DNA of 64,000 nucleotides from Anaerolineales bacterium UBA3082 (GCA_002366595.1 DFBK01000011.1:13540-77539); one strand, 5' to 3'. Positions 263 through 64,000 are shown, counted from the first letter of the stretch. Notes: generated from the letters alone by a model not told the origin. Translations and numbers: made by a program.

Positions 263-2896
263 TCAACCTTGCAACTCCACCTTCACCCAATCCAACATAA
301 TTCCCAAGTCTCTACTGTCCTCGCTTAACCCCGCGGCCCGAGGGTTCCAGGTGTCGGTTTCCAAGCGAAGGACTGGGTTGCGACCCGCGAAGTCAGCCAA
401 GAGGATCGCTGGCACCGAAGCGCGATATGTATCGAACTCTGGGCCCAGTTCGAACTCGTCCAGCAACACTTCGTTCAAGTAAAGGGATACGTTGGACGAG
501 GGTGTTCCCTCTGGCCGGGGGCTTGCCATCCGGAGAGTCACCCCCATTGCCCTAGATGCCTTGAGCGGGGGCAGTGCTATCTGAGCGACTTGCCCCGTCC
601 ATCGGAAGTCGATCGTATCCAGACCTCTTTCTTTATGGTAGAAGCCTCCAAGCAGAAAGTTTGAATCCAACAAGCCTATGTCTAGGTAAAAGGGGTAAGC
701 GGGCTTGCTCTCGGCCTCCTCCGTCGAAAGCAAGAGGTAGATCTCGAGGGGTAGAGTAAAGCGGAGTCTCTGGGTCGGGATATGCTCATACGAGTGTTCC
801 AAGGCTGGTACGTCGATCCAAAGCCCCTCGCGTGGAATGAGAACGAACTCATCCGAGAATGGGGCTGGGGCGTCATCCCCTTTGATCAGAAACAGCTCCT
901 TCCCTTTGCGTTGCCAATCTCTGGCTAGTTTCTCTAGGGCCGGAATATCCCTTTTGGCGCCTCGAAACCCGAATATCTCTCTCTGGAAGATGTACTGGAG
1001 GGGCGTACCGACAAGATCGCTAACCCCTACCGCCTGGCTTTGGGGGACCAGCACCATCGCCTCTTCGGGAAGAAGGTTTGCCAAAACCTGCAACTGACTC
1101 GCCGCTCCTTGGTATTCCACGTGCCCTATGATATACCAATCCACTCGCAGAAGCAAGAGGATGAGGACAACGCTGAGGGCCAAGGAAAGGTACCGTTCCC
1201 ATCCTCCGAGAGGCGCGCTATCTCGGGCCCAGAGAAGGGCATAGGCGGCTAGGATGAGGAAAGAGGGGATCACCACCGGCACATAGCGGCGCATGACGTA
1301 GATATGGTGGGGGTTGGCCAGAGTGCGATAGAGATACAAGGTGGAGAAAAGGGAAGCGATAGCCAGGAAGTAGAGGTTTTTCGGCGAGAGGTCTCGCCAA
1401 AGAACGGCTGAGGCACCCACTGCCGCCAGCCATATCCCCAAAGGCGAGAGGTACCATCCCAGTCGTACCAGGTTCTGGTGATCATAATTGGGGATCCAGG
1501 CGTCGACGTACCAATAGTAGAAGGATTCAACATGACCAAGGGCAGGCCGTACAAAGTAGCCGTAGAGGGCCAGAAGGCAAACCATGATGATCAGTGCCCC
1601 CAGGATTCCCCTCCGGCGAGACCATAGAGCATCCCCCAAGCGGGAGATCCTATCGGCTCGAGCCAGGAGGAGAAAGTAGCCCATGAGGGCCAATGAGAGG
1701 CCCCAGAGAAGGCGAGTGGAGGTGAGGCCCAACCCCTCCAGCACCTGGCTGTAGGTGTCCTTGACATAGGGCCAAGAAAAAGCCCGCCAGTGAAGCAAGG
1801 AATGCGAAACCATGAAAAGTAGGGGCAGGAAGAACCAAGCGTGAGCGGCTCTCAGCCGGCGAGAGAGGCTCAAGTAAAGGAAGAAAATCAAGGGAGGGAT
1901 CAGGAGCAAAGGTGCATCTATGCGGGTCAGAAGCACCGCGCCGAGGGAGAGCCCTGCCGCCAGAGCGAAGAGCCGCTGGGGTCGTTGCCCGTCAACCCAA
2001 GCGGCGAAGGCATAGATCGCACTAAAGACGAGAAACTGGGATAGTGCTTCCGAGGTCGGATAGCGGGCGAACCAAATCTGGGCAGCGGTGATAGTAAGGA
2101 GGAACGCGGCTAGACCGGCAACTCGAGCGTCGAAGAGCCTCCGGGTAGCGAAATACACGCTCAATACCCCCAGCAACCCCCAGCAAGGAGTAGCGTATAG
2201 GCTACCATTGAGACCAAAGAGGCGATGAAAGAGAGCTATCCAGAGGGGATGCAAGGGCAGGAATTGAGGACTGATGAGGCCTCTCTCCAAGTCGATGATG
2301 TAGAAACCGGGAAACCTCAAGTAGCGGGCCGTAGAACTTGGAGGCTGCTCGCGGAGCAGCAGAGGAGCTAGCAAGGGATCCAACTCGCCCAGTTCCTTAT
2401 CTTCGATGCGGAGGGAACCGGTAGTGGCGATATTAGCTCCCTGGCTCACGTAAACGCCAGCATCGGCCCCTCCAAACAGGTATTCGTGCGGATGGAAGAA
2501 CAGCGCTGCCGCCAGGGCCAGGATGCCTGCCAAGACGAGAGTGTGGCGAGAGGGATGCCAGCGGGTTGTCGGAAGAGCTACAGCGCGCGCGTGGAGGAGG
2601 TATAGGACAAGTGCCGAGAGGTAACCGAGGAGTAGAAAGACCAAATTGCGAAGAGTAAGCCAACCTATCTCTCCCAGCAGCAGAGCGATGCAGGAAGTAA
2701 GGAGCACGCTGAGGAGTAAGGAAAGAAAGCAAAGATCGGGCACGTCCTCTGTAGATTCCTGGCTTTCGGTCGGCAGCGTCTCCGGTCTAAAGGCCCCGAA
2801 CGCGGCCAGGGTGGCATAGCCCGGAAGGAAAAAGAACAGAGGCAACGAAATCAACGCTTGTAGAACCGCGGTCAAGTTGGGCAAGCTCGCGCACAC
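263..2896 (-). CDS. Large polytopic membrane protein (877 aa), GT-C-like (ArnT/PMT-family-like) putative glycosyltransferase with C-terminal soluble domain
   Basis: Long ORF. The N-terminal ~640 aa contain >12 hydrophobic helices with short loops, typical of COG1807/ArnT-like GT-C enzymes. The C-terminal ~230 aa are hydrophilic. No clear catalytic motif could be verified by eye. Confidence 0.55.
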   Translation of the reverse strand: MCASLPNLTAVLQALISLPLFFFLPGYATLAAFGAFRPETLPTESQESTEDVPDLCFLSLLLSVLLTSCIALLLGEIGWLTLRNLVFLLLGYLSALVLYLLHARAVALPTTRWHPSRHTLVLAGILALAAALFFHPHEYLFGGADAGVYVSQGANIATTGSLRIEDKELGELDPLLAPLLLREQPPSSTARYLRFPGFYIIDLERGLISPQFLPLHPLWIALFHRLFGLNGSLYATPCWGLLGVLSVYFATRRLFDARVAGLAAFLLTITAAQIWFARYPTSEALSQFLVFSAIYAFAAWVDGQRPQRLFALAAGLSLGAVLLTRIDAPLLLIPPLIFFLYLSLSRRLRAAHAWFFLPLLFMVSHSLLHWRAFSWPYVKDTYSQVLEGLGLTSTRLLWGLSLALMGYFLLLARADRISRLGDALWSRRRGILGALIIMVCLLALYGYFVRPALGHVESFYYWYVDAWIPNYDHQNLVRLGWYLSPLGIWLAAVGASAVLWRDLSPKNLYFLAIASLFSTLYLYRTLANPHHIYVMRRYVPVVIPSFLILAAYALLWARDSAPLGGWERYLSLALSVVLILLLLRVDWYIIGHVEYQGAASQLQVLANLLPEEAMVLVPQSQAVGVSDLVGTPLQYIFQREIFGFRGAKRDIPALEKLARDWQRKGKELFLIKGDDAPAPFSDEFVLIPREGLWIDVPALEHSYEHIPTQRLRFTLPLEIYLLLSTEEAESKPAYPFYLDIGLLDSNFLLGGFYHKERGLDTIDFRWTGQVAQIALPPLKASRAMGVTLRMASPRPEGTPSSNVSLYLNEVLLDEFELGPEFDTYRASVPAILLADFAGRNPVLRLETDTWNPRAAGLSEDSRDLGIMLDWVKVELQG

Positions 2897-2959
2897 CTTT
2901 CTGGTTTGGAAGGAAATTCGCCTTTGCCTCTCGTACCGTCCGAGGGGAGAGAGGCGGTC

Positions 2960-4228
2960 CTAGTCAGAGTTCTCCTTGTCTGCACCTAGTCTGGCGTAAA
3001 CTACTTCTATCTCCCCCACGTGTTCCTCTAGAGTCTTCACCGGCTGTATGTTGTTCTTCAGGCCCTCCAGAATAGATGGGTTAGCCACTATCTCTCGCAA
3101 GAGATGGGAGAGATGGGCTACATCGCCAGGAGGAAATAGGAACCCATCAACGCCATGACGCACCTTTTCCGCCAAGGCGCCTATGCCTGAGGCAATTACT
3201 GGAACTCCAGCGGCGAATGCCTCTTCTACGACCAGGGGGGACACCTCGTACCACAAGGAGGGGATAACGACGACGTCAGCCTGGGCTAGGGTAGACCACA
3301 ATTGTGAACGGGGGATGAGGCCGCGGAAGGTTATGGAGGAGTCCCCCACCATCTCTCTTAGCGCGCAAGTGTAATCTGGGAAAGCCTGTTCATCCCCACA
3401 TACGGCGAGGGTGGCCGGGACGGAGCCTAGGCTCTGGAAGGCCTGGACCAGGGTGTGAAGTCCCTTCTGCCAGGCGATCCCTCCGAGATATAGAAAGTTC
3501 AAGCCATCTTCGGCTCGCCCGGGCAAGCTATCGATGGGAGGGTCTATCCCATGTTCTATGAGGCGGACCTTTTCTTTCGGGAGGCCCTGTCTCGAGAAGA
3601 TGGAACGCACAAACTCAGTGGGGCAGATTATCAGATCGGTCGCCGCGAGGGCCTTTCTTAAGAGTCTATCTCTGTAAGCAAAGAGGCCCGCGGCAAGGGG
3701 TCCAGGAAAGAGGGGAGCAGGGATCCCAACTCTAGGGGCCGCGCAAGAATAAGCGCAGTTGAGCCAAAGCCTAGGGCCTGGGCACAACTTGTTATCTCCC
3801 CACCGCAGAAGTTGGGCATTAGGGCAGAGAAACCAATAGTCATGCAGGGTCAAAACCGTGGGGATGCCCCGGTCTTTGGCGATGACCATCAACCTATCAG
3901 AGAGGCCCTTAAGGTGCTGAAAATGTATCAAATCGGGAGCTTCTTCCTCTAACACTTCTGTGAAACTTTCGTCCACAAAAGGGTTGCGAAAGGAAGAGAG
4001 GAATAGCGATAAAGGGTTTCGGGCCGCCATATCGTAAAGGGTATATACCTTCAAGCCGTCGGAGCCAAATCTCATCCCCAGCCTTCTTTCACCTGAGGTT
4101 TCTCCCCGACAGAAGACTATGACCTCGTGTCCCCTATTCTTCAAGGCTCGAGACAGGTTTTGGGTGTATATCTCAGTGCCCCCGATCTTCTGGGGAGGAT
4201 ACTGATGGACTACCTGTAGGATGCGCAT
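2960..4228 (-). CDS. Glycosyltransferase family 4 (GT-B fold)
   Basis: N-terminus 'MRILQVVHQYPPQKIGGTEIYTQNLSRALKNRGHEVIVF' is a Glyco_trans_4-like beginning. The C-terminal Glycos_transf_1 region has the 'NFLYLGG...KG' start and an E-x7-E-like 'EVSPLVVEEAFAAGVPVIAS'. Confidence 0.85.
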   Translation of the reverse strand: MRILQVVHQYPPQKIGGTEIYTQNLSRALKNRGHEVIVFCRGETSGERRLGMRFGSDGLKVYTLYDMAARNPLSLFLSSFRNPFVDESFTEVLEEEAPDLIHFQHLKGLSDRLMVIAKDRGIPTVLTLHDYWFLCPNAQLLRWGDNKLCPGPRLWLNCAYSCAAPRVGIPAPLFPGPLAAGLFAYRDRLLRKALAATDLIICPTEFVRSIFSRQGLPKEKVRLIEHGIDPPIDSLPGRAEDGLNFLYLGGIAWQKGLHTLVQAFQSLGSVPATLAVCGDEQAFPDYTCALREMVGDSSITFRGLIPRSQLWSTLAQADVVVIPSLWYEVSPLVVEEAFAAGVPVIASGIGALAEKVRHGVDGFLFPPGDVAHLSHLLREIVANPSILEGLKNNIQPVKTLEEHVGEIEVVYARLGADKENSD

Positions 4229-4238
4229 AAATCGTCTC

Positions 4239-5498
4239 TCAGCGGGTGACTTCCTCGTAAATGCCCTTGATCTTCCGGTAGATTATATCCCAAGTGTAGG
4301 AGCGCACGACCTTCTCGTACCCTCGCTCTCCCAATCGCTGAGCCAGATCTTTATTCTCCAGGATTGACCTTATGCTCTGGGACAAGGCGGGAACATCGCC
4401 GAAGGCAACTAGTAGGCCATCCTGACCGTCTTCTACCACCTCTGGCACCCCCCCGGCTAAGGCTCCGATGACCGGTTTTCGATTGACCCATGCCTCAAGA
4501 TAGGCGATGCCGAAGGCGTCCACACGGGAGGGCATGGCCAAGACTGCTGCTGAGGCTAGAAGGTCCCTTTTCTCCGCCTCATCAACAGATCCAAGCAACC
4601 TTATCCGCCTCCGCACCCCCTTTGAAAGTCCCTGATAATACCTTTTGAAGGAGCCCAAAGGCCTCCCTGCTAGAATCAGCTCCGCGTCTATCCCTTTGGC
4701 CCAGAGCCGTTGCATGGCTCGTATGAGGTGGACCGCCCCCTTATCATAAGTTATCGTGCCCAGAAAGGCCACTATCTGCCCCCGTAACCCATATCGCTCT
4801 CGAAAACGCTGTGCATTGCCTCCCTGCAACTGGCGAGGATTCACTCCTACCCCCACCTTGCGTACCCTCGTCGCTTCCATGCCCAACTCAATAAGGTATT
4901 CCCTCTCCAGCTCGGTGAGGGTTATTACTATTTCGCTACCCCGCAACGCTTCCAATTGGTGGCGCATGGTGTGATGCCGCACCACAGAACGCTCCCCTGG
5001 TTCTCCGAGGTGGAGAAGAGGGGTCATGACAAAAGGCAACCCACGGGCACGAGCATAGCGCCATGCAACGATGACCGGATATTCAAAGGATATATTGACG
5101 CCGTGGACGATGGAGAAGGGTTCTTCTTGAGCAGCCAAAACCCTCTCTAGGGTTGGCACCCAGGGCATGTAGCGGGACATAGTCCGAAGGAGAGGTGTGG
5201 TGTCGAAAGGCAAGCCCGAGACCTCAATGGCCGATCTCCGCAGGAGGTAAAAGGAATAAGGGGTCAGGGGCAGATGACGCACTGGACACCGCTGTATCTT
5301 CACGCCGTTATGGACCTCTTTCTTCCTCTCTATCGGCTTCTTGCCCCTGGCCCAGATATGCTCTGTTACTCCTGCGTCGCTGGTGACGACGGTGACCCGG
5401 TTTCCATCCCCCACCAGCCTCTCTGAGATCTCCCGAAGGTAAGTCTCCGCCCCCCCGATATGAGGCCAGTAGAAAGCAGAAACATGTAAGACTTTCAT
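4239..5498 (-). CDS. Glycosyltransferase family 4
   Basis: 'MKVLHVSAFYWPHIGGAETYLREISERLVGDGNRVTVVTSD' is a GT4 N-domain. The C-terminal part has 'IVAFLGTITYDKG...AMPSRVDAFGIAYLEAWVNRKPVIG', matching the Glycos_transf_1 pattern. Confidence 0.85.
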   Translation of the reverse strand: MKVLHVSAFYWPHIGGAETYLREISERLVGDGNRVTVVTSDAGVTEHIWARGKKPIERKKEVHNGVKIQRCPVRHLPLTPYSFYLLRRSAIEVSGLPFDTTPLLRTMSRYMPWVPTLERVLAAQEEPFSIVHGVNISFEYPVIVAWRYARARGLPFVMTPLLHLGEPGERSVVRHHTMRHQLEALRGSEIVITLTELEREYLIELGMEATRVRKVGVGVNPRQLQGGNAQRFRERYGLRGQIVAFLGTITYDKGAVHLIRAMQRLWAKGIDAELILAGRPLGSFKRYYQGLSKGVRRRIRLLGSVDEAEKRDLLASAAVLAMPSRVDAFGIAYLEAWVNRKPVIGALAGGVPEVVEDGQDGLLVAFGDVPALSQSIRSILENKDLAQRLGERGYEKVVRSYTWDIIYRKIKGIYEEVTR

Positions 5499-5894
5499 AC
5501 TCTGCCTGACCTGTTGTCTGTCAATCTGGGCAAAGTATAGCGCATTGTGAGAGTGCAGTCAACGAAGATACCAAAAACTGCGGGGTGGAGAGCGAGGATG
5601 GGCAAGTGGGTAGCAAGCAACGGTTACGAGGCAGAGGTCACGGTTATTGTGTATCCTGGATTTTGCAGAAAGGAAGGGGGCGTGAGTGGGATGAAGTAGG
5701 AGTTGTAGGCCCGCTCGAGGGGCGTAAGATTCTAAGAGCCGATTTGTGAATCCTGCTTTCCTACGGTTGGGCGCTTGACCCAAGGGGTGAATAGGAAGAG
5801 AGATGGTCGCTATTTGGAACAGGCAGATAGGCTATGATTTCGAGGCCAAGAACCTGACGACAGGCCCGATGCGAGATCACGGACTCTAATCTCC

Positions 5895-7745
5895 CTATTT
5901 CACGACGAGAGGGAAGAAGAACTTCTCCACCGGGCCTACATAGAGGGTCACGGGTTGGATGATGTAGGGACTGTTGAGTACCCCTGGGCCGCCATCGATA
6001 GTGATCGAACTGAGATCGTAGGTGCCGGCCGGGTATCCTGAGGCATCCACCGCGACGATGATTTGGGAAGGGGAACTGGCGGTGGCAGTCCCGGAACTGG
6101 GCGTCACCGAGACGACCTCTGGTTGGCTCGCCGTGGCCGTCCAGTTGATGCTTCCTAAGCCTCGATTTCTTATGGTGATGGTATGGTAGGAGGGGGTCGT
6201 GTTCCCACCTTCCTGGTGAAGGAATAGAAGAGACTCCTTGTCCACAGAGAGGGTAGGAGGGGAGGGGTATAGCCCCGTATGCTGAGCGTTCTGGTGGAAG
6301 ATAGGCCAGGGGAGTTCAGCATCCGCCGAGGGACCCACCTCCCAGACATAGAGATAGCCGTGAGTCTGGTCGAAATGGTCGGATCCACCGATAGAGATCT
6401 CCAGTTTGCCATCGTGGTCGATGTCGCCTATCGCCGGTGAGCCGAAAAGGGAAAAAGTGGTAGAGAGGATCTCTTCCAAGGAGCCGTTCCTACCGTAGAT
6501 CTGAACGTCCCAGAGCATGGCAAAGAGTATTTCTAGTTCTCCGTCCCCGTCGTAATCAGCCATGGTAGGGGACGAGCGGATGAAATGATTGGTACTCATG
6601 CTATTCCGAGGGGTGACGGGCCAGCCTGCAACTGGGCTACCGTCGTGGTGCCAGGCGTAAACCTTTCCTTGCTCGAGGTCTCCAGAGCCGATGATGATCT
6701 CTAGATCACCGTCGTTGTCGAGGTCGGCCAGGGCTGGGGAACTGAAGCCGGGGAACTCCGTGGCCGCTGGCCACCCGGGCAGGAGATTCCCATTTCTATC
6801 CCAAGCGTAGACGGCCAGGGTAGTGGGATTGCCCTGGGCCCACCAATACCAACCAGTGCCAACTACGATTTCCAGATAGCCATCGTTGTTGATATCGCCT
6901 ATCGCCGGGGATGAATAGATGGTTTCGTTAATCCAATTCTTGACCAGGACATTGCCGTCCTTGTCGAAGACGTAGAGGTATCCGCCGTCGTAGGTGGGAG
7001 GCGTGATATGAGAATTGCCCGTGATGTCGGCCCCGATGATGATCTCCAGCCCTTCCACGTCAGGGCGCAGATCCGCTATGGCAGGACTCGACCAGATGGA
7101 ATCCCAGTTATCGTGCTCCCAAATCTTTTGGCCATTGTGATCGATCAGGTAGATCCAGCGATCCCAGCCTCCAAAGGCGATTTCCAGATCACCATCCCCA
7201 TCCACATCTCCTAGGGCCGGAGAGGAGAAGACGCCGTCAGTATGCCCATCTCCGTTTTGATCGTAGGTATAGAACTTCCAGAGAAAGGTCCCATCGGCCC
7301 CGTTGTAGGCTACCAGACCACCATGTTGGGCTAGGTCGCCTGGATCGCCTCCTACGCTGACGACTACCTCCATGTCGCCATCGTTGTCAATATCTCCTGC
7401 CGCAGGTGAGGAGTTGATTGGGGCTTCGGCATTCCTCTGCCAGAGGATGCTCCCATCATAGTTAACGGCCACCAGCCAGTAGGGGTTGGCGCTGCTGGTG
7501 CCCACCGCTGTGGTGCCCACTAGGATCTCGTCGTAACCGTCGTTATCGATGTCGGCAAAGATGGGAGACGATTCGATCACTTGGCCGCCCGGAAGTTGCA
7601 CCGGGAAGCCTGGTTTGGTAGAGGCGGAAAGGGGGGCAGAAGCAGCGGGAGTGCGAATAGCCGAAATCAACCAAGTAAACCCTATAATCCAAAGGGAAGA
7701 GATCAACCATCGTATAACCTCTTCCCTTCTTGCTCCTCTCATCAA
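5895..7745 (-). CDS. Secreted/membrane-anchored FG-GAP (VCBS-like) repeat beta-propeller protein with C-terminal Ig-like domain
   Basis: An N-terminal hydrophobic signal/anchor is followed by about eight repeats carrying a Ca-binding-like 'D-x-D/N-x-D-G-x-x-E' motif (DIDNDGYDE, DIDNDGDME, DVDGDGDLE, DINNDGYLE, DLDNDGDLE, DYDGDGELE, DIDHDGKLE), each preceded by 'SSPA'. This is the classic FG-GAP blade signature. The C-terminal ~110 aa are a Ser/Thr-rich beta-sandwich-like segment. Confidence 0.8.
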   Translation of the reverse strand: MMRGARREEVIRWLISSLWIIGFTWLISAIRTPAASAPLSASTKPGFPVQLPGGQVIESSPIFADIDNDGYDEILVGTTAVGTSSANPYWLVAVNYDGSILWQRNAEAPINSSPAAGDIDNDGDMEVVVSVGGDPGDLAQHGGLVAYNGADGTFLWKFYTYDQNGDGHTDGVFSSPALGDVDGDGDLEIAFGGWDRWIYLIDHNGQKIWEHDNWDSIWSSPAIADLRPDVEGLEIIIGADITGNSHITPPTYDGGYLYVFDKDGNVLVKNWINETIYSSPAIGDINNDGYLEIVVGTGWYWWAQGNPTTLAVYAWDRNGNLLPGWPAATEFPGFSSPALADLDNDGDLEIIIGSGDLEQGKVYAWHHDGSPVAGWPVTPRNSMSTNHFIRSSPTMADYDGDGELEILFAMLWDVQIYGRNGSLEEILSTTFSLFGSPAIGDIDHDGKLEISIGGSDHFDQTHGYLYVWEVGPSADAELPWPIFHQNAQHTGLYPSPPTLSVDKESLLFLHQEGGNTTPSYHTITIRNRGLGSINWTATASQPEVVSVTPSSGTATASSPSQIIVAVDASGYPAGTYDLSSITIDGGPGVLNSPYIIQPVTLYVGPVEKFFFPLVVK

Positions 7746-7840
7746 AGCCCCTCTCCCCTCCGACCGGGCTGTATTGCTCAGTCTATGTCCAGTATTCCCC
7801 GCCCTACTGTCGGTGTCAATGGGAAGAAGGTACTAACAGT

Positions 7841-38024: not shown

Positions 38025-38086
38025 CTGAAATCGGTATCTGCTTCAAATAGCCATTCGACCATACCAGAGATGTTACTATCCCCAGG

Positions 38087-39652: not shown

Positions 39653-39655
39653 GGT

Positions 39656-41374: not shown

Positions 41375-41375
41375 G

Positions 41376-42089: not shown

Positions 42090-42104
42090 GGTTGTGACTG
42101 ATTG

Positions 42105-43121: not shown

Positions 43122-43123
43122 AG

Positions 43124-45315: not shown

Positions 45316-45406
45316 TCCTGTCTTTGCCTGATGGCAGATGGCTGATGGCCCAAGACCGACCGCCGACGGCCGACCGGAACGAATGACGGCAGTCCGTAAT
45401 CAGCGG

Positions 45407-48588: not shown

Positions 48589-48589
48589 A

Positions 48590-53330: not shown

Positions 53331-53331
53331 A

Positions 53332-55979: not shown

Positions 55980-56478
55980 CTACAATACCTCGATGTTCAC
56001 TAACAACCGCTCAAATCGTGTCCAGTTTTAGGGGGCACTTCAGGCACTATTGCATTAAATCGGACTTTTGAACGAGCAACAGTATATCTAACGGTTTCTG
56101 TTCAATCCTATCCGATCGTGTGGACAAAACCCGGTTCTCCAGATGGCAGATGAATAGTAGGGGAAGAGGGAGTCCGATTCTGTGGCACATCCTTAGAACC
56201 CACCGGCTCCATCGAAGAAGAGCTACGTCCTCCTTGATAATTGAAAACCCTGCTAACTCGAGCTCGTGAACTATCTCTTCCCTAGAGAAGCCTTGCACCA
56301 CATGATCCAGATGATAGAGAGGGGGCGGTAAAAGCGGCACACTTATCAGAAGCCTGCCATGGGGACGAAGAACCCGCCACATTTCTCGCAGTGCATCCTG
56401 GCGTGCCGCCAAATGTTCGATAACCTCTATGCACTGCAGCATATCAAACGATTGGTCTGCAAGAGGCAACCTCTCCGC
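55975..56478. repeat. Direct repeat copy A (~504 bp, ~95% identical to 57715-58218)
   Basis: Both copies begin 'cccatctacaatacctcgatgttcactaacaaccgctcaaatcgtgtccagtttta' and run colinearly through '...cgattggtctgcaa.aggcaac.tctccgc' with scattered mismatches. The repeat covers the 3' half of a methyltransferase ORF plus ~70 bp downstream. Confidence 0.9.
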
Positions 56479-56619
56479 TCTGGCGAAATGGATGAAGATG
56501 TTCCCTGCTATGTGGGTCTCCACCTTCGCCTCTTTCCATTCTCTGCGGCGGAGAGCACTTTCTGGAAGGTTCTTCTCCAGACAGAGAAGTTCGGCTCTAC
56601 CACGCCTTCTCCTGTCCAT
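56047..56619 (-). pseudogene. Truncated SAM-methyltransferase paralog (lacks motif I), remnant
   Basis: The 190-aa ORF's C-terminal 150 aa are near-identical to the full MT at 57788-58621 ('CIEVIEHLAARQDALREMWRVLRPHG.LL.SVPLLPPP.YHLDHVVQGFSREEI.HELELAGFSIIKEDVALLRWSRWVLRMCHR.GLPLPLLFICHLENRV'). It lacks the N-terminal 'LDVGCGGG' SAM-binding motif. Confidence 0.7.
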
Positions 56620-56676: not shown

Positions 56677-57651
56677 TCAGCCATAAGTCCGCGCCCGCTG
56701 CTTATTGAGCCAGAGCCAGTATCGCAGACATCCCTCTTCGAGGCCGATGTCTGGTTTCCATCCAAGTACTTGTTGGGCCAGGGTGATGTCTAGTACGTTG
56801 ATAGGGACATCAAAAGGCCGACTTGCGCTGTAGTTCACCACCAACTTCCGTCCCATAACTCCTTCGACCACTTCGAGCAGATCATTAAGGCTGATGCCTC
56901 TCCCGCTACCTACGTTCATTAGTCGGGTGGAGGGCATCCGCTCAAGCAGCTTACAAACTGCTACACCCAAATCGTCAACGTGGAAGTAGTCTCGGATAAC
57001 GCTGCCGTCTCCCCAGATCTCAAAGGGCTGTTCTGTTAGAGCTGCGTTCAACATAGCTGCTATTACCCCTTGCCTGCGCCCAAGATCTTGACGCTCACCA
57101 TAGGGATTGGCACAACGCAGGATGTAGTATCTCACCCCGTGCAGATGGTAAAAAAGGTACAAATACTTCTCAACAGCAAGATTTGTGATACCATATGAGC
57201 AGACGGGGCTTGTGGGATGGCTCTCCGATATTGGATTACTCTGTGGTATACCATAGACTGTGCCCCCGGACGAGATGTAGATGATCACGCTGTTTCCCAG
57301 CTTTGTTGCTTCTTCGAGCAACCCCAGGGCTCCTACTATCGTAGTCTGAACATCTTGCACAGGGTCAAGATTGGACTCAGCAGGCAAGCTTGTACCGATG
57401 CAATGAATCACAACTTCAACGCTTTGCAGAGCAGCTCTAAGGGCCTTGCGATCAAGGAAATCACCCACAACGAAGTCAATCTGTTGATCAATTTCTCGCC
57501 GTCCCGTAAGCGGTTTTGCTGTGCGACTGAATACCCTTACAGGGTAACCCTGACACACCAGTTCCTCAGCAATGTGAGATCCGATGAAGCCGGCTCCCAA
57601 GACCAGACAGTTCTGCTTCTTTGGCTGTCTAGTATCAGCCTCGGAAGTCAT
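56677..57651 (-). CDS. NAD-dependent epimerase/dehydratase (extended SDR)
   Basis: 'NCLVLGAGFIGSHIAEELVCQGYPVRVFSR' Rossmann motif, 'YISSGGTVYG' and 'YGITNLAVEKY' (Y-x3-K). Confidence 0.8.
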   Translation of the reverse strand: MTSEADTRQPKKQNCLVLGAGFIGSHIAEELVCQGYPVRVFSRTAKPLTGRREIDQQIDFVVGDFLDRKALRAALQSVEVVIHCIGTSLPAESNLDPVQDVQTTIVGALGLLEEATKLGNSVIIYISSGGTVYGIPQSNPISESHPTSPVCSYGITNLAVEKYLYLFYHLHGVRYYILRCANPYGERQDLGRRQGVIAAMLNAALTEQPFEIWGDGSVIRDYFHVDDLGVAVCKLLERMPSTRLMNVGSGRGISLNDLLEVVEGVMGRKLVVNYSASRPFDVPINVLDITLAQQVLGWKPDIGLEEGCLRYWLWLNKQRARTYG

Positions 57652-57714: not shown

Positions 57715-58218
57715 CCCATCTACAATACCTCGATGTTCACTAACAACCGCTCAAATCGTGTCCAGTTTTAGGGGGGCGCTTCACGCGCTATTGCACCAAA
57801 TCGGACTTTTGAACGAGCAATAGTATATCTAACGGTTTCTGTTCAATCCTATTCGATCGTTTAGAGAAAACCCGGTTCTCCAGATGGCAGATGAATAGTA
57901 GGGGAAGAGGGAGTCCGGTTCTGTGGCACATCCTTAGAACCCACCGGCTCCATCGAAGAAGAGCTACGTCCTCCTTGATAATTGAAAACCCTGCTAACTC
58001 AAGCTCGTGAAGTATCTCTTCCCTAGAGAAGCCTTGCACCACATGATCCAGATGATAGAAAGGGGGCGGTAAAAGCGGAACACTTACCAGAAGCTTGCCA
58101 TGGGGACGAAGAACCCGCCACATTTCTCGCAGTGCATCCTGGCGTGCCGCCAAATGTTCGATAACCTCTATGCACAGCAGCGTATCAAACGATTGGTCTG
58201 CAAAAGGCAACATCTCCG
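57715..58218. repeat. Direct repeat copy B (partner of 55975-56478)
   Basis: See copy A. This copy is the 3' half of the intact methyltransferase gene plus the downstream spacer. Confidence 0.9.
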
Positions 58219-58621
58219 CCGACGCTTGCGCGACAAATGCCTTCGAAAGACGTTTTGCACAAAGTCGCCACTGCGTAAGTTCTACATGTTTCCTGTCGAA
58301 ATCTATCCCTCCTACCCAACTAGAGCGGGAAGCAAGCGTTTCAAGCATATACATGCCCCCGCCGCACCCAACATCAAGACATCGCCCCAAATCTTCCTGC
58401 GGTAACAACCGCTCGACGATGGGCATCTGAGCCGCCCCTCGAACCGTGTTGCCATTTGCCAGGAATAAACGTCCCATTACCTTGGCCCACTCACCTATGC
58501 GCCAACGTAGGGTGATCTTGGGCTGGCGTCGTGCTATTGAATCATCTTGTTTGAAACCCCGTTGTGTCATCGAAGGCTTACACCTTTCATACTGGCGAGA
58601 GTAGACTGGTGAGCAATGCAC
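57788..58621 (-). CDS. Class I SAM-dependent methyltransferase
   Basis: Motif I 'CLDVGCGGGMYMLETLA', acidic post-I 'GIDFD', and motif II/III 'FDTLLCIEVIEHL'. Confidence 0.8.
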   Translation of the reverse strand: MHCSPVYSRQYERCKPSMTQRGFKQDDSIARRQPKITLRWRIGEWAKVMGRLFLANGNTVRGAAQMPIVERLLPQEDLGRCLDVGCGGGMYMLETLASRSSWVGGIDFDRKHVELTQWRLCAKRLSKAFVAQASAEMLPFADQSFDTLLCIEVIEHLAARQDALREMWRVLRPHGKLLVSVPLLPPPFYHLDHVVQGFSREEILHELELAGFSIIKEDVALLRWSRWVLRMCHRTGLPLPLLFICHLENRVFSKRSNRIEQKPLDILLLVQKSDLVQ

Positions 58622-58646
58622 CCTCAGTTATTAGCAGAGGTGCACC

Positions 58647-60491
58647 TCACTCACTACACTGGCCAACAAAACCAGTGGGTAACCGCGCGAACGCACCTAA
58701 ACCTGGACACGTCTTTCCCAGTAGTCTTTGCCAATCTGCGACCGAGAACCTGGTAGTCTCGACTCGTCTGAGATGCATCTGCTGAAACCAGACATCACCT
58801 ATGCCATAATTCATCACCGCGATATAGGGATCAAGTGGCGTTAGCTCGGGATTCAAAATCAAAAAACTAGCCCTCACCCAGTCCCCATCCGTTGCTGCCA
58901 ACTGATAAAAAACAGTACTGTTGTTTCGCTTATCCACCACGGTAATGGCAGCTTTTTGTTGGCCCGCAACATCCGTCCGGTAGCCAAAAGTAAGCAGATT
59001 AATAGACCCTGGGGCTAACTGAACCGGTGCACGAAACACAGCGCGCGGGAAGTGGATGTTTCCGGACACATCCCGGGTCCAAACCCCCTGGATACGCACA
59101 GAAGGGAGGCCGTTGAGAACCTCTGCATAGTCTAGTCCCCCAACGAAGAATCGGGCTTGTTGAAAACTGTCGTCAGGCCAGATTAACCACTGCCAAGCAT
59201 CTGGTTGATCTTGTTGATCCCTTCTTGCTCCGAAGGCACCATTTGCCAGTATATCTTGCCCTAACTGTATTTGAATCTGTGCCTGCCCCAAGAGAGAAGT
59301 CAGACGGGTGGATTCGTTGTACTCTTTGTCAAATTCTGCCTGCAATGAGAACGCCGAAGCCTGATCTCCGGTCGATTGATAAGCCTGAACCAGCAATTCA
59401 GTTCCTCGAAGGTCTGCCGGGCGTAGCTGGTGATAGCGTTCAAGCAGTTCGGCGGCACGCTTCCAATGTCCCACTCTTCCCAGCACTTCGCCAGCCACTA
59501 GATAAATCTGAGCATTTTCGGCAGCAACTTCCATGGATGAGGACACGGTTGAATCAACCTTCGTAGCGCTCGGTTCAGGCGAAAGCTTTAAGTTGAGCAC
59601 GTGCCAGATGGCACTGTTGGGAAATCGTGCCAGCATCTCGACAACAAGGTTCTGTGCGTCCTGTCGCCGTCCGCGCCAATCTAATAAGGAAGTTAGCTTA
59701 TAAACATCGTTCTCACCCCATATTCGCCGATCAAGCAGAGCCAGTGCCACGCTACCCCAGTCTTCTGGTGCCTCCAGGGTGGAAGGCAGAGTGAAATACC
59801 TGAGTTCAGTGCGCAGCGCCTCCGCCTCTTCGGTCTTACCCCTGAGGCTTAGAACCTGTTCGAGCCGATACAGACTCTGTAAATTGTTGTACTTGATCTC
59901 CAGCGATTTTCTGAAAACATCCTCTGCTTTAGCAAGTTGTCCTTGTTCCAGGTACTGCTTGCCACCCATCACGAGGCTGGACAGTAGCCGTTCCCGGGCC
60001 CAAGGCCATTTTTCTGGCAACCGATCCCAGAAAATCTCGTACCAATAGGCCGCAGAAGGATAATTAGCCACGACAAATTGATGGTTGGCGATTGCTAGGG
60101 CACTAAAAAGATCCAAATCGGACGCTTTCATCTGGTTAGCGGTCAGCCAGTCTTCCATGTCACGATCTTGTCGAATGGCGTAAGACAACACCTGTGCGTC
60201 CTTGACCCTTATGCCCTCAGGATCTACTATCCTGGCAGCCGACAAAACGTTAACAACTCGCAATAGGCCACCGCTATGTACATCACTTGCCAGCCCTTGT
60301 CCGATGAAAAACATATGCTCGTCAGGAGCCGGGGGACGTACAGCGATGTAATCCATAAGGGTGTGCAGACTATCTATCCGCAATGCGTTGACGAACCCAA
60401 GGCGCACGATAGGCCTGACGTTCAACAGAACCAAGATGCCTATAGCGATAAACATTAAGCGTACACGAACAGATAGATACTTACTCCGCAT
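58647..60491 (-). CDS. Membrane-anchored TPR-repeat protein (614 aa)
   Basis: N-terminal TM ('LMFIAIGILVLLNV') followed by multiple TPR-like hairpins ('YLEQGQLAKAEDVFRKSLEIKYNNLQSLYRLEQVLSLRGKTEEAEAL', 'AQIYLVAGEVLGRVGHWKRAAELLERYHQL', 'LLVQAYQSTGDQASAFSL'). The C-terminal ~200 aa form a beta-rich domain. Confidence 0.7.
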   Translation of the reverse strand: MRSKYLSVRVRLMFIAIGILVLLNVRPIVRLGFVNALRIDSLHTLMDYIAVRPPAPDEHMFFIGQGLASDVHSGGLLRVVNVLSAARIVDPEGIRVKDAQVLSYAIRQDRDMEDWLTANQMKASDLDLFSALAIANHQFVVANYPSAAYWYEIFWDRLPEKWPWARERLLSSLVMGGKQYLEQGQLAKAEDVFRKSLEIKYNNLQSLYRLEQVLSLRGKTEEAEALRTELRYFTLPSTLEAPEDWGSVALALLDRRIWGENDVYKLTSLLDWRGRRQDAQNLVVEMLARFPNSAIWHVLNLKLSPEPSATKVDSTVSSSMEVAAENAQIYLVAGEVLGRVGHWKRAAELLERYHQLRPADLRGTELLVQAYQSTGDQASAFSLQAEFDKEYNESTRLTSLLGQAQIQIQLGQDILANGAFGARRDQQDQPDAWQWLIWPDDSFQQARFFVGGLDYAEVLNGLPSVRIQGVWTRDVSGNIHFPRAVFRAPVQLAPGSINLLTFGYRTDVAGQQKAAITVVDKRNNSTVFYQLAATDGDWVRASFLILNPELTPLDPYIAVMNYGIGDVWFQQMHLRRVETTRFSVADWQRLLGKTCPGLGAFARLPTGFVGQCSE

Positions 60492-61638
60492 CGCGAATTG
60501 AGTGTCCTAAGAGCCAGTTGGCGCAGTCTTCAATGTTTTGGACCGATGGGTTGAGTTTGTACGTAATAGACCTCGTACCAGCAAATGAATTGTATAGATT
60601 CAACAAAGAGAAAGGCGCAACAGCCTTAGCATACCGCTGCAGACGCCTGTAGACCAAGTAAGCCCGCACTCGAAGAGGAAGCTTGCGCAACTTCTCTTCA
60701 GAAGCCGCTTCCTCCACGCCTAGCTCCAACCTTCGTTTTCGCCAAAGGCGTAACTGGTAATCACAGCCTGCGTAGTACTCTCTCAAATTTTTTAGTTCAT
60801 ATGGACAGTGGTTTAAGTACCGCAGCTTAACTCTCTGTAATGTTGCATAATGTCCGTTAACAAAGAAGTTGCCCGCCAACGGTAGCATAATTCCCCTCAT
60901 CACTTCCGGGTCTTTCAGCACCGCGTAGCTCTGCTTCCGTGAATCTGTGAAAATATCACTCACCCCGATTGATGTAGAACCTCTGCCCAACAGAACGAGT
61001 TGCTTACGAATTTCAACACATCTGGAGCAGTGCAGCAGGGCAGAGGCGAGACAATAGTAATCTGGGTGAATAGGTTGATACGGGCCTTCTTCTTCAGATA
61101 TCTGTTCCAGGAGATGCTTGGCATAGCAAACTGGCTGTGTTGGGAAAGGAACGTCGAGTGTGGTGTATATGCTCTCAAGCAACGGCGCAGTATCCAGCAA
61201 GCATGTCGTGGCGTCACCTGTCTGAATCACCAAAGTGTTCCTTTGCCGCTTGACAAAGAAGTCGTTAGGATAATATACGGCATTGTAAGAAGACAGGAGG
61301 GACGGCCCGTTCCATTCTCGGATGGCTTTTGCATAGCTTTCTAAACAGTCAGGGAGCAAGAAGTCATCATCTCCGATACAAATCAGGTATTGCCCTGTAG
61401 CCTGGCGGTATGCATTATTCCAGTTGGCAACGCCCGGAACATCACAGCCAGTATTCACATACTTGATCCGCCGATCTGCGAAGCCGGTCACCATCGAACC
61501 CGTTCCATCAGAAGAATTATTGTCAGAAATCACAAGTTCAAAATCATGCCAGGTCTGCTGCAGAACAGACCGGATGGCAAACTGAAGCAAGTGTGCTCTA
61601 TTCTTTGTAGGGATCAACATCGAGAAGGTGGGTTCCAT
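60481..61638 (-). CDS. Glycosyltransferase family 2
   Basis: 'FSMLIPTKNRAHLLQFAIRSVLQQTWHDFELVISDNNSSDGT' and DxD 'ICIGDDDFLLPD'. Confidence 0.85.
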   Translation of the reverse strand: MEPTFSMLIPTKNRAHLLQFAIRSVLQQTWHDFELVISDNNSSDGTGSMVTGFADRRIKYVNTGCDVPGVANWNNAYRQATGQYLICIGDDDFLLPDCLESYAKAIREWNGPSLLSSYNAVYYPNDFFVKRQRNTLVIQTGDATTCLLDTAPLLESIYTTLDVPFPTQPVCYAKHLLEQISEEEGPYQPIHPDYYCLASALLHCSRCVEIRKQLVLLGRGSTSIGVSDIFTDSRKQSYAVLKDPEVMRGIMLPLAGNFFVNGHYATLQRVKLRYLNHCPYELKNLREYYAGCDYQLRLWRKRRLELGVEEAASEEKLRKLPLRVRAYLVYRRLQRYAKAVAPFSLLNLYNSFAGTRSITYKLNPSVQNIEDCANWLLGHSIRDAE

Positions 61639-61694
61639 AGGCTGTTGTAACTAACTTTCAGACAGGTTCACTTCCGGTTACACGGATGTTGTTG

Positions 61695-63074
61695 TCAAGT
61701 AGTGAGTTTCTGATCGATTGCGGCTCTACACATTAATGGATAGAGAATAGTAGCCGGAACCGATAGAAAGACAAAAGCAACCATGATGCCTACAACCCCC
61801 ATCTGCCGCCCCAGGCATATTGAAATCGGCACGACCAGAATGTTGGTCAGAACTCCCAACACAAGTTGGCCTCGTAATAAACCAAACCCATTGAGCACAA
61901 TCGAGTAGGTGCTGTTCCATACGTACATGATTGTCCATATAGCCATCATGACAACCAGACCCGTATTGTCAATCTGCTTTCCAGTCCATATCCATAACAA
62001 CGGTCGGTAGAAAGCTACCATGACCAAGCAGCCACCAGTCATCAGTGCCACGCTGGCCCAGGCCAGGCGGCGCATGGCAGATCTAGCCCAGGGCCAATCG
62101 CCAGCGGCCTGTGCGTCTGTGAACGCAGACCAGAAAGGCGTTATGATGGATAGGTGAAAACCAATTAACAAGAAGAACAACCGCTGCACCACATTGAAAT
62201 CTCCTGCCGCATCTAGGCCCAGCACTTGGCTGGTTATATAGGTGTTCGAATACATTCCAATTGCAGATAGCATCGAAAGAAGCCAAAACTGCAAGCCAAG
62301 GCCCGCCAGGTCGCGGATGCAGGCTACAAGCTCATTCCTGCCAATTTGGACCAGACGCCAGCCCCGACTTCTTTGAAAAACGATCAGTCCCGCTAATCCT
62401 GATAGCGTAAATGATCCGAAGAATACTGACGTAACCACGTAAAACGGAGCCCGGAGCGCAATCGCTAATGACACGAAGATCAAAGCTCCCAGTTTGGGCA
62501 ACGCATCAAACGGTGCATTCCAAAACGAACTCTGGTATGCAAAAAAACCGGCGCTGTATAGCTGTAAAGGAATAAGTAGCAAGATCAAGTTTGCAATGAC
62601 TGCCAGCCAGCAGACTCCCTGAGTCGCGAGCCTCAAGTCGGCGATATTGAAGACGGATGTCCAGGGGATGATTGGAGACAGGGTTGTCAGAAGAATACCG
62701 ACGAGCACTACGAGGAAAAGAAGTGTGTATAGGGTCGAAAAGAAGTACTGGCGGGCTGTCTGGTCTTTGGATGCGTCGCCGGCCCATGCGGCCAGCTTGT
62801 TCCGTAGCCCGTTACTTACTCCAAAATCCAGGCTTCCACTTAGAGCCATGAAAGAGGTGAGCACGGCGTACAACCCAAATTCCTCACGTGAGAAGTAGCG
62901 GGTGATCATGCCCAACATGAGGAAATTGGCCACCATGCCCAAAATGCGGCCCCCAACCATCGCCCCAGACCCAGCAACTGCATTGCGTAATCTTATATTC
63001 TGAGATAAAGTGGCCTTGAGAGCGAAGCCGAACTGATTCGTCATAAACAACTTCCTATCAGCGCTGTGTATCAT
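61695..63074 (-). CDS. wzx: Oligosaccharide flippase (Wzx, MOP superfamily polysaccharide biosynthesis protein)
   Basis: ~12-14 TM helices. The N-terminal 'ALKATLSQNIRLRNAVAGSGAMVGGRILGMVANFLMLGMITRYFSREEFGLYAVLTSFMAL' is the Polysacc_synt family beginning. The likely start is the internal 'MTNQFGF' (~63044). Confidence 0.8.
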   Translation of the reverse strand: MIHSADRKLFMTNQFGFALKATLSQNIRLRNAVAGSGAMVGGRILGMVANFLMLGMITRYFSREEFGLYAVLTSFMALSGSLDFGVSNGLRNKLAAWAGDASKDQTARQYFFSTLYTLLFLVVLVGILLTTLSPIIPWTSVFNIADLRLATQGVCWLAVIANLILLLIPLQLYSAGFFAYQSSFWNAPFDALPKLGALIFVSLAIALRAPFYVVTSVFFGSFTLSGLAGLIVFQRSRGWRLVQIGRNELVACIRDLAGLGLQFWLLSMLSAIGMYSNTYITSQVLGLDAAGDFNVVQRLFFLLIGFHLSIITPFWSAFTDAQAAGDWPWARSAMRRLAWASVALMTGGCLVMVAFYRPLLWIWTGKQIDNTGLVVMMAIWTIMYVWNSTYSIVLNGFGLLRGQLVLGVLTNILVVPISICLGRQMGVVGIMVAFVFLSVPATILYPLMCRAAIDQKLTT

Positions 63075-63313
63075 TCTTACTTAGAGTTTCCGAGCGGCTG
63101 AGCGCGTGCTAATCACTTTGTTTCTCTTTGCCATGGACAAAACAAGGATGGAGTCGAGCGTGCAACGCAACGTTCGGACGGCGTTCTAGGCCAGCACGCA
63201 CACACTGACCAGCAGATAAGCAGGTTCTTGTGAGCTGGACTCATAGCCCTCGCTTGTATATCATATTTCTCAAAGCGTCATCCCAGCTGTACCGGCTATC
63301 CACCATCAGTGGG

Positions 63314-64000
63314 CTATCTTGGGGGACAGTCCTCGGCCAACTCTCGAATTTGATAGAGCAGTATCAACTCATTAGTACACTTGAGCTCGTCTCGAATTTG
63401 CCGCTCGATCTCTCGCTGGAACGCCCGAGATGAGATCAGAATTGGTTCTGATCTGCCCTTAGAATCGGCTGGAGCAATAATTGGGATCCCATTCAACTGC
63501 TTGCCCTGATAGTGAGAATTAGAATCCACAAAAGCGCAGATGTTTGACTCGGTCAGCTTACTTGTAGCTAATAGCCTTAACGTATGTGTGCCAACTCCCC
63601 ACACAATAATGGGTCTACCACTGGCTGCAAGGTCATCAATCATTTGGCGTATGCGGTCGTCAACTTTCTGCGATTGGCGGATATATTCGACCAAGCCTTG
63701 CTCTGTCTCCAGATCCCGTACAGGATGTGCCGGGCGCAAATCGTCCTTCTTGAATATGGCGGAGATGACTGGCATCGTTGTACCATAACTCTGCTCACGT
63801 GCGTCTTGCCGACAGAAAACCTGAACAAAGCCATTTGACTGCATCAGATTGGCAAGAGAAGTAGCGGAAAAGAAGTTAATATGCTCGGTGCTGAATTGTT
63901 GAAAAGGGGCATCCGGCCAGCGCGCAAACTGAGTGGCATCTGGCACTTCCACAAACATCAGCCCTTCTGTGGAGAGCATGTAACGCGTTTTGGCCAGCGC
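63314..64000 (-). CDS. SAM-dependent methyltransferase with C-methyltransferase-like C-terminal domain (partial; 5' end beyond window)
   Basis: The ORF remains open to the window edge. 'GLMFVEVPDATQF' is a post-motif III MT region. The C-terminal 'GRPIIVWGVGTHTLRLLATSKL...ICAFVDSNSHYQGKQLNGIPII' resembles the Rossmann-like C-terminal domain of sugar C-methyltransferases. Confidence 0.6.
   Translation of the reverse strand, partial: ALAKTRYMLSTEGLMFVEVPDATQFARWPDAPFQQFSTEHINFFSATSLANLMQSNGFVQVFCRQDAREQSYGTTMPVISAIFKKDDLRPAHPVRDLETEQGLVEYIRQSQKVDDRIRQMIDDLAASGRPIIVWGVGTHTLRLLATSKLTESNICAFVDSNSHYQGKQLNGIPIIAPADSKGRSEPILISSRAFQREIERQIRDELKCTNELILLYQIRELAEDCPPR

Follow-up and report, generated by a model that had tools for sequence, protein, structure and literature searches.

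A composite envelope-glycan island of at least 79 kb in an Anaerolineales bacterium

The DNA considered here is a window of 64,000 nucleotides (the whole stretch that was analysed) from Anaerolineales bacterium UBA3082, corresponding to positions 18040–82039 of a 400-kb contig in ENA. It is filled by genes for surface-glycan assembly: a Wzx flippase, two Wzy_C-domain proteins and a Wzc-like kinase, the ATP-binding cassette (ABC) transporter Wzm/Wzt, and polytopic glycosyltransferases (GT) of the GT-C fold. The island is probably not a single dedicated machine but a set of separable modules, juxtaposed in a lineage-specific way. In the best reading, these neighbouring modules evolve fast and serve at least two glycans, one of which would be exported by the ABC transporter and then decorated outside the membrane. 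It is thus a composite envelope-glycan island of an already known type. The original prediction, made from the sequence alone, had described a single supercluster. This unity is probably not real, because the nearest relative has the corresponding parts divided between two contigs, synteny is lost at about 38.3 kb, the GC content shifts, and gene remnants and other scars are seen at the junctions.

The assignments of families and folds, the order and conservation of the genes, and the breakpoints are direct observations. The nearest relative (contigs Ga0209979_1000025 and Ga0209979_1000169 of JGI 3300024353) shows 75–94% protein identity, and the conserved block is found on contigs from three metagenomes. 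The order of the block is GT-C, jelly-roll protein, Wzt, GT2, GT4, coiled-coil protein, GT4, GT4, methyltransferase, GT-C, FG-GAP protein, GT4, GT4, and GT-C. On one contig of the relative it extends from the counterpart of 20332–21885 through Wzt to that of 263–2896. The orthologues of a geranylgeranyl-reductase (GGR)-like flavoprotein (91%), Wzc (84%), and Wzm (82%) are on a separate 106-kb contig of the same metagenome. This second contig carries GGR, Wzc, a Wzy_C protein (37%), a flippase-like protein (47%), GT2, GT-C, a glycoside hydrolase of family 5 (GH5), a paralogue of the jelly-roll protein, Wzm, and Wzt'. Wzt' is a paralogue of Wzt with 57% identity and is adjacent to Wzm in the relative. 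No Wzx is seen at the Wzc locus of the relative within the 22 kb examined. Nucleotide identity to the relative is 88% across the GGR-like gene (36849–38024) and Wzc, and the synteny stops at approximately 38.37 kb, within a gap. Upstream of this break, the DNA of the relative contains epimerase, phosphomannomutase, and toxin-antitoxin-type genes, and neither heptose nor Wzx/Wzy modules.

The GC content is 0.48–0.52 in the region 52–64 kb and 0.53–0.62 elsewhere in the window. The low values coincide with the Wzx/Wzy module and would fit its separate acquisition.

Scars are observed at the junctions. The N-terminal remnant of a GT2 gene lies in a 404-bp gap (31432–31837), where VVIPAYDAASTLAHCLRALADQS is followed by ILVVDD in another frame. 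It adjoins a gene for a polytopic "flippase-like" protein of the LPG_synthase_TM family (31837–32883; PF03706, 149.8 bits; TIGR00374, 66.6 bits against a cutoff of 43.2). At the position of the remnant, three loci of relatives (L092, L093, and L095) have an intact GT2 gene, followed by a GT-C gene either directly (L092 and L093) or about 6 kb on (L095). This suggests a three-component unit of GT2, flippase-like protein, and GT-C, which would have decayed in the window. Directly after Wzm there is an open reading frame (ORF) of 102 aa (28905–29213) that resembles the proline-rich motif and second transmembrane (TM) segment of polysaccharide co-polymerase (PCP)/Wzc proteins, with 45% identity to residues 378–428 of the Wzc. 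Judging from its sequence, it is probably what a rearrangement has left of a gene. An ORF of 112 aa (26571–26909), with no Pfam match, is by sequence inspection only a probable fragment of a B12-binding radical-SAM gene. It resembles the N-terminal B12-binding part of class-B radical-SAM proteins, and the full gene is present in L095. The methyltransferase at 56047–56619 (190 aa) matches only positions 39–95 of the Methyltransf_11 profile; it lacks the N-terminal part that binds S-adenosylmethionine (SAM) and is probably truncated. The carbamoyltransferase gene (49756–51509), whose Carbam_trans_N and Carbam_trans_C domains are on two ORFs, is interrupted by a single frameshift, which alignment to an intact homologue of 594 aa places between 50334 and 50265, close to a purine-rich run. 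Either the gene is a pseudogene or the assembly is in error here; the stretch is outside the independent-assembly segments described below. The last scar is a 287-bp tandem duplication (19987–20519; 1.9 copies, 83%), which copies the 3' end of the GT-C gene at 20332–21885 into the downstream gap. Together, these scars are the mark of a surface-glycan region that evolves fast and recombines. In an independent JGI assembly, which is 100% identical over 15128–36004, the gap at the site of the duplication has an equal length.

Fifty-one non-nested ORFs, all on the minus strand, tile the positions 263–63979 according to the ORF listing and a simple tiling. Each plus-strand ORF of at least 100 aa is nested within a longer minus-strand ORF, and all genes described here are on the minus strand. 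The predicted run of more than 45 consecutive minus-strand genes is therefore real, and it was the extent of 64 kb that proved too small: glycan genes continue on the same strand for at least 10 kb on each side, beyond both ends of the window, and the island is at least 79 kb in total. Downstream of position 263 are a lipoprotein, a sixth GT-C (a paralogue of 7841–10936), a GT2-GT4 fusion, two GT2, and a methyltransferase. The lipoprotein gene, at 1–245, has the lipobox LASAGC. The paralogous GT-C gene outside the window (14064–16631 of locus L003) is split into ORFs of 553 and 52 aa. Upstream of position 64000 are methyltransferases, an RmlD-like reductase, a thiamine-pyrophosphate enzyme, a NeuB-cupin protein, and a DegT aminotransferase, on the same strand. 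Assemblies of three other samples (JGI 3300001749, Logan SRR5324181, and Logan SRR1313318) agree with the window at 100% identity for about 56 kb, in the segments 1–14228, 15128–36004, 35930–42234, and 58146–64000. These segments span the Wzc/GGR junction and the entire Wzm-to-Wzt interval, and because the whole interval is included, the arrangement of Wzm and Wzt is not a chimera. Several further contigs of 50–200 kb bear the same proteins. An assembly chimera, which the prediction had named as grounds for its own rejection, is largely refuted, being excluded for most of the window, and the assembly is sound. A scan of the window with Rfam gave zero matches.

Families were assigned by Pfam scans of all 51 ORFs and NCBIfam scans of 30. 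These hidden Markov models (HMMs) recover most of the predicted inventory: Wzx, two Wzy_C proteins, the Wzc kinase, Wzm, Wzt with its carbohydrate-binding module (CBM) about 10 kb away, three GT2 (one of them the remnant), one GT26, and two initiating phosphoglycosyl transferases (PGTs). Five GT-C were claimed and five are found; four are seen with Pfam (two above threshold and two one bit under it) and the fifth through a structure model. The number of GT4 was overestimated, since HMM support is found for only nine ORFs instead of about thirteen. Weak Pfam matches to "GT4-conflict" families were considered for a defence-system or phage reading, which was rejected, as they are only secondary and lie beneath much stronger generic GT4 matches.

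In the account that follows, substrate flow, the roles of the Wzy_C proteins, the lipid-linked donors, and the final acceptor are deduced from established family logic. Module 1, of lower GC, extends from beyond 64 kb to 46.7 kb and would be an ordinary Wzx/Wzy-dependent repeat-unit pathway. The chain could be primed by the small PGT, which consists of the catalytic domain only (46701–47366; Bac_transf, 198.8 bits), and extended by four GTs: two GT4 at 47356–49759, one GT4 at 53332–54543, and a GT2 at 60481–61638 (Pfam). The Wzx-type flippase of the MOP family (61695–63074) has at least about nine TM segments and matches Polysacc_synt by a small margin (30.9 bits against a cutoff of 28.2); the public gene call for Wzx uses a different start codon. 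The Wzy_C-domain polytopic protein at 54540–55979 (39 bits against 31.7; about 11 TM segments) is the candidate Wzy polymerase. The repeat unit might be modified by methyl- and carbamoyltransferases and receive a side branch after flipping from the one GT-C of this module, and the genes just upstream of the window would supply unusual sugars. Module 1 further contains an epimerase/dehydratase for sugars linked to nucleoside diphosphate (NDP) (56677–57651), a methyltransferase (57788–58621), and an anchored tetratricopeptide-repeat (TPR) protein (58647–60491), all assigned with Pfam. At the edge of the window is the C-terminal part of a methyltransferase (63314–64000; Methyltransf_14 and Methyltransf_23), a protein of 440 aa that runs off the window and whose full gene is seen in L004.

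Module 2 (46.6–38.3 kb) would supply sugars, through a dehydrogenase of UDP-glucuronate type and an NDP-heptose pathway that a transaldolase feeds. The genes at 38322–42089 encode transaldolase (TIGR02134, 340 bits against 282), a GmhB-like phosphatase, a divergent GmhA-like SIS protein, an HddA-like kinase, and a nucleotidyltransferase. The best matches here, or close to the best, are to the GmhB, GmhA, HddA, and HddC models, and all are under the NCBIfam equivalog cutoffs (HddA 168 against 600 bits; GmhA 33–36 against 209–320 bits). From these similarities, the region is likely to be an NDP-heptose pathway with its own supply of sedoheptulose 7-phosphate. The region 42105–46612 encodes a GFO/IDH/MocA oxidoreductase, a short-chain dehydrogenase/reductase, UDP-glucose 6-dehydrogenase, and an epimerase/dehydratase (Pfam and NCBIfam). 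The profile match of this epimerase/dehydratase (45407–46612) is in two pieces (approximately 6–132 and 199–377), which implies that its Rossmann domain contains an insert of about 65 aa.

Module 3 (38.0–31.4 kb) might combine regulation and a decayed decoration system. It contains the GGR-like flavoprotein, Wzc, and the second Wzy_C protein, and the flippase-like gene with the GT2 remnant may be the decayed trace of a three-component decoration grouping that is intact in the relative. Wzc (34290–36293) is a fused PCP and bacterial tyrosine kinase (BY-kinase) with Wzz, GNVR, and CbiA domains (TIGR01007, 177.7 bits against 108). Its BY-kinase motifs are Walker A MEGKST, Walker A' VILVDSDLR, the Walker B-like LVLFDSPA, and the C-terminal YYY. 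The flavoprotein of the geranylgeranyl-reductase family (36849–38024) is under the cutoff of its model (TIGR02032, 129.9 bits against 158.8). It can be speculated that it saturates the polyprenyl carrier, by analogy with archaeal dolichol synthesis. The Wzy_C protein at 32885–34237 (82.9 bits) could be a polymerase, or a ligase or O-oligosaccharyltransferase (O-OTase). Wzy_C is also the domain of O-antigen ligases and O-OTases, which are required by ABC-dependent pathways, and the domain by itself cannot tell these functions apart. This protein has a weak NCBIfam match to the ligase model PEP_O_lig_1, and a sequence search of solved structures returned only noise, with no match to a solved ligase or OTase. 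An outer-membrane polysaccharide exporter (OPX; Wza) is not seen, as none of the 51 ORFs matches Poly_export. The absence of Wza is expected if the host has no lipopolysaccharide (LPS) outer membrane, and Chloroflexota are without LPS-type outer-membrane genes (PMC8871954).

The remaining part of the window would belong to the ABC pathway. The chain could be started by the large polyprenyl-phosphate PGT of WbaP/WcaJ type (25128–26543; Bac_transf, 227 bits, with CoA_binding_3; TIGR03025, 445 bits against 296) and would be polymerised in the cytoplasm by GT4 and GT2 enzymes. The carbohydrate-binding domain (CBD) of Wzt would recognise the finished chain, which Wzm/Wzt would export. Outside the membrane, GT-C enzymes would add residues from polyprenyl-phosphate sugars, and the GH5-type hydrolase (23649–25067; Cellulase, 35.6 bits; N-terminal signal or anchor) might trim the product. 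Wzt (17934–19175) has an ABC_tran domain and a C-terminal CBD (Wzt_C, 114.9 bits), and it aligns to the solved full-length Wzt of Aquifex (8DKU/7K2T) over residues 40–403, CBD included, with an E value of 6e-74. The ABC-2 permease Wzm (29231–30040) has about six TM segments (ABC2_membrane, 48.9 bits against 26.9) and matches NF050109; its best NCBIfam permease model is a galactan exporter. The two genes are not adjacent, having 10.06 kb and nine ORFs between them, and the spacing is the same in three independent assemblies. A tblastn search with Wzt' of the relative found no remnant of a second Wzt beside Wzm. The methyltransferase of 415 aa at 11094–12341 (Methyltransf_11; no specific-family match in NCBIfam) is a candidate for the enzyme that caps the chain end, as read by the CBD of Wzt.

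The cytoplasmic enzymes of this part include GT4 at 2960–4228 and 4239–5498 (Glycos_transf_1 and Glyco_transf_4), at 12338–13489, 13551–14732, and 15284–16474 (Pfam), and at 30224–31432 (Pfam). The order of the middle three is kept in relatives, as is that of a 187-aa coiled-coil protein (14746–15309). A GT2 of 501 aa lies at 16471–17976 (Glycos_transf_2, 112.7 bits), and a GT26 of the WecG/TagA family at 26950–27699 (Glyco_tran_WecG, 213.9 bits; TIGR00696, 144 bits against 69). Other genes encode a secreted or anchored FG-GAP beta-propeller protein with a BACON_2-like C-terminus (5895–7745; FG-GAP_3, 106 bits; 91% to the orthologue in the relative) and a membrane-anchored TPR protein (28042–28908; TPR families).

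Four of the GT-C proteins are seen with Pfam. The protein at 263–2896 is PMT_2/GT39-like, with 877 aa and about 12 TM segments (PMT_2, 37.2 bits against 26.1). Its orthologue in the relative is 86% identical, and a sequence search of solved structures returned nothing. The GT-C at 20332–21885 is just under the PMT_2 cutoff of 26.1 (25.1 bits), and that at 21900–23519 matches GT22 (25.0 bits against 23.8), with homologues that bear PMT_2, GT22, or STT3. The PMT_2-like GT-C of the low-GC module (51576–53573) is also just under the cutoff, with 25.1 bits. Its closest homologues, annotated as GT39, are 31–32% identical, and none exceeds 32% among 16 distant matches of a weak search that did not return the query protein itself.

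The fifth protein (7841–10936; 1031 aa) has no Pfam match itself, and its homologues bear PF10131 (PTPS_related), PF09586 (YfhO), or PF19830 (DUF6311). It consists of a predicted GT-C-fold enzyme of the YfhO/PTPS_related/DUF6311 type (approximately residues 1–600) followed by C-terminal beta-sandwich domains. In the alignment of homologues, an aspartate in the first external loop (D50) is invariant. In Foldseek, the AlphaFold (AF2) model (pLDDT 78, pTM 0.68) matches STT3 (8AGE_A, E value 5.5e-10) and the C-mannosyltransferase DPY19 at the top, and a weak profile match to CBD chains of Wzt is also seen (E value 0.003). Based on the model, this is assigned as the fifth GT-C of the window. A scan of a genome collection with the single 1031-aa protein returned nothing, and in one seeded by an alignment of 7 sequences of its family (an alignment of 21 being too divergent) no species representative is closer than 36%. 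The named genomes nearest for two GT-C families are metagenome-assembled genomes of Anaerolineae and other Chloroflexota, with at most 36% identity to 7841–10936. They point to Chloroflexota for the host, with Anaerolineae as its probable class. In four loci of Vicinamibacterales (Acidobacteriota; L030, L031, L057, and L074), the TM domain of this family is beside GT2 genes and a Wzt/Wzm pair, and this Wzt is about 40% identical to that of the window. The association of GT-C with the ABC transporter thus recurs across phyla. Among Anaerolineae, the family is found in tandem arrays in L008, L016, L022, L059, L066, and L089, and L089 has five GT-C genes in a row.

Two of the GT-C would have beta-sandwich modules of their own for glycan binding, one as the fused C-terminus of 7841–10936 and the other as the stand-alone protein at 19150–19896. 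The latter is a membrane-anchored jelly-roll (CBM-like) protein of 248 aa with no Pfam match, encoded between a GT-C gene and Wzt. Its AF2 model (pLDDT 89.8) matches in fold CBM6, CBM16, and CBM22 as well as phage baseplate and receptor-binding modules. The family comprises about 1,370 clusters. In other organisms the same domain is fused to polytopic proteins of the GT87, YfhO, PMT_2, and DUF6541 families. Because of these fusions to GT-C proteins, model and sequence comparison together are best read as indicating that the protein serves the neighbouring GT-C as a detachable accessory for glycan binding. A parallel is seen in the CBMs that EmbC and the GT136 founder have (PMC3044687, PMC11127046).

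Two PGTs, a Wzx/Wzy set, a Wzm/Wzt set, and five GT-C fit the earlier proposal of at least two distinct glycans or of one elaborated on both faces of the membrane. We also agree that sequence alone cannot separate capsule or extracellular polysaccharide, wall polysaccharide, and protein glycosylation. Several observations weigh against separable modules. The two contigs of the relative could stem from different strains, although separate loci in one genome are likely, and the absence of the low-GC end from relatives is suggestive only, since the search was weak and the query protein was not returned. The sole Wzm and the sole Wzt of the window are separated by 10 kb, and the intervening genes could share one pathway, which would make module 3 and the fourth module less separable. 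The 75% relative has the methyltransferase that is the candidate for capping, and the 86–88% relative L094 (at 10680–10964) is without it. For the five GT-C, no clear polyprenyl-phosphate-sugar synthase or GtrA-type flippase is seen in the window, and both intact GT2 proteins (16471–17976 and 60481–61638) have no predicted TM segments. A scan of 27–46.9 kb for promoters and terminators gave fewer promoter-like sites than shuffled sequences and no operon boundaries. The window could also be one integrated dual-chain pathway, as for the rhamnose-containing cell wall polysaccharide of Lactococcus (Rha-CWPS) or the polysaccharide antigen of Enterococcus (EPA), and this is unlikely. Here, oligo- or polysaccharide units would be grafted outside the membrane onto the backbone that the ABC transporter exports. 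The second PGT would start these units, Wzx would flip them, Wzy_C or GT-C would polymerise them under the control of Wzc, and GT-C would transfer them. Every type of part needed is on one strand, Wzc is between the two halves, five GT-C, two with glycan-binding modules, suit a transfer from glycan to glycan, and a mechanistic precedent is known (PMC9574508). However, the nearest relative carries the halves on separate contigs, and its locus around Wzc includes an adjacent pair of Wzm and Wzt' of its own, with no Wzx in the 22 kb examined. Moreover, the Wzx/Wzy half differs in GC, its GT-C has no close homologue (in the weak search that missed its own query), and several junction genes are decayed. 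A fuller version for Chloroflexota seems rather doubtful. In it, the ABC-exported backbone would be decorated or cross-linked outside by at least six GT-C, including the paralogue outside the window, each guided by a module (the family of 19150–19896 among them), with Wzx-flipped units as one donor and the GGR-like enzyme tailoring the polyprenyl carrier. The stand-alone membrane-anchored jelly-roll partner would then be previously undescribed.

Protein O-glycosylation of an S-layer or other surface protein is quite improbable, as the 51 ORFs contain no SLH or S-layer domain and no recognisable O-OTase. It would follow the slg type of Geobacillus and Paenibacillus, with the Wzy_C protein at 32885–34237 as the O-OTase for an ABC-exported, capped glycan, and PMT-like GT-C might also mannosylate proteins directly. 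The PGT, Wzm/Wzt with Wzt_C, methyltransferase, and Wzy_C agree with the slg parts list, PMT_2-type GT-C are related to protein O-mannosyltransferases, and a conserved secreted FG-GAP protein and a lipoprotein are in or beside the block. Yet this Wzy_C protein is only 37% conserved in the relative, versus 82–91% for its neighbours, and by sequence it matches none of the solved ligases or OTases. That the window is a chimera of unrelated contigs is hardly credible. The contig is metagenomic, its GC is heterogeneous, and it has a 287-bp repeat; against this, the assemblies of three other samples are identical across the Wzm-Wzt interval and the Wzc/GGR junction, and the same proteins recur on the other long contigs. 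The juxtaposition of separable modules is thus the preferred reading.

The architecture of the cell envelope of Chloroflexota is under debate (PMC8871954), and no description of a glycan locus of Anaerolineae was found in the literature searched. For this question the verified island, which is at least 79 kb long and whose modules and breakpoints are defined, offers a useful map, and it illustrates how surface-glycan loci diversify through module shuffling. If the fuller dual-chain version were true, the island would be a first genetic handle on a poorly understood envelope. Current models of glycan assembly are not overturned by it. The GT-C family of YfhO/PTPS_related/DUF6311-like proteins with C-terminal beta-sandwich domains is widespread and recurs beside Wzm/Wzt in two phyla. 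The jelly-roll family and the association of GT-C with Wzt are more original leads than the supercluster, and both this GT-C family and the jelly-roll family may matter more than it.

The original prediction had considered the combination unusual, as the three assembly logics are normally alternatives. Such parts already coexist in single characterised loci: an ABC transporter, a Wzx-family flippase, GT-C, and a Wzz-like protein are found together in Lactococcus cwps and the Streptococcus group A carbohydrate (GAC) locus (PMC9574508), and GT-C three-component systems modify ABC-made and Wzx/Wzy-made O antigens alike (PMC11127046). In cwps and gac/rgp, the rhamnan is exported by an ABC transporter, and a Wzx-family flippase and the GT-C transferases WpsJ, WpsI, and GacL are present (PMC9574508); the EPA locus of Enterococcus is alike (PMC7188991). 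The island resembles these loci in having, on one strand, the genes for a PGT-primed, ABC-exported backbone, a Wzx-family flippase, extracytoplasmic GT-C, and a Wzz-like regulator. In cwps, gac/rgp, and epa, a conserved backbone half is paired with a hypervariable decoration half (PMC9574508, PMC7188991); any link between the two halves of the island is hypothetical. Unlike the rhamnose loci, the island belongs to another phylum, is 3–4 times larger, and shows no signature of rml or of rhamnosyltransferases. It further differs in its fused BY-kinase, true Wzy_C proteins, five or more GT-C, and likely heptose pathway, and the window is without an LCP ligase, a GtrA-family flippase, or a GacI/J-type synthase.

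The mycobacterial region Rv3779-Rv3809c is similar in its Wzm/Wzt-type exporter of a cytoplasmically polymerised chain and its multiple GT-C (PMC3044687, PMC11127046). The mycobacterial GT-C, some with C-terminal CBMs, elaborate the chain outside the membrane from polyprenyl-phosphate sugars (PMC3044687, PMC11127046). Unlike this region for arabinogalactan and lipoarabinomannan, the island has no Emb/Aft, DprE1/2, or UbiA-type synthase, and it has a complete set of Wzx, candidate Wzy, and Wzc. In the GtrABC-like and GT136 O-antigen systems, too, GT-C, sometimes with a backbone-binding CBM, are inside glycan loci (PMC11127046). In contrast to them, the putative cognate synthase here is only the remnant at 31432–31837, and the candidate flippase, as judged from its sequence, is of the LPG_synthase_TM family and not GtrA, MATE, or SMR.

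In the slg clusters of Geobacillus and Paenibacillus, a PGT and a Wzm/Wzt transporter with a C-terminal domain are joined by a methyltransferase for capping and a transferase of Wzy_C type, and the GDP-D-glycero-D-manno-heptose pathway of Aneurinibacillus uses GmhA/HddA/GmhB/HddC-type genes. The island has a PGT, Wzm/Wzt with a C-terminal domain, a methyltransferase, a Wzy_C-type protein, and putative heptose-activation genes. Unlike slg, it has no S-layer gene, and its heptose enzymes are under the NCBIfam equivalog cutoffs, with a very divergent GmhA-like protein. In Klebsiella and Escherichia coli, the cps (Wzx/Wzy/Wzc) and rfb (Wzm/Wzt) loci adjoin and recombine as modules. Those hosts are diderms with Wza and WaaL, in contrast to the island, which has no OPX protein. 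Compared with all these systems, the island is distinctive in its phylum, its size, its number of GT-C, and the unusual family of its candidate flippase.

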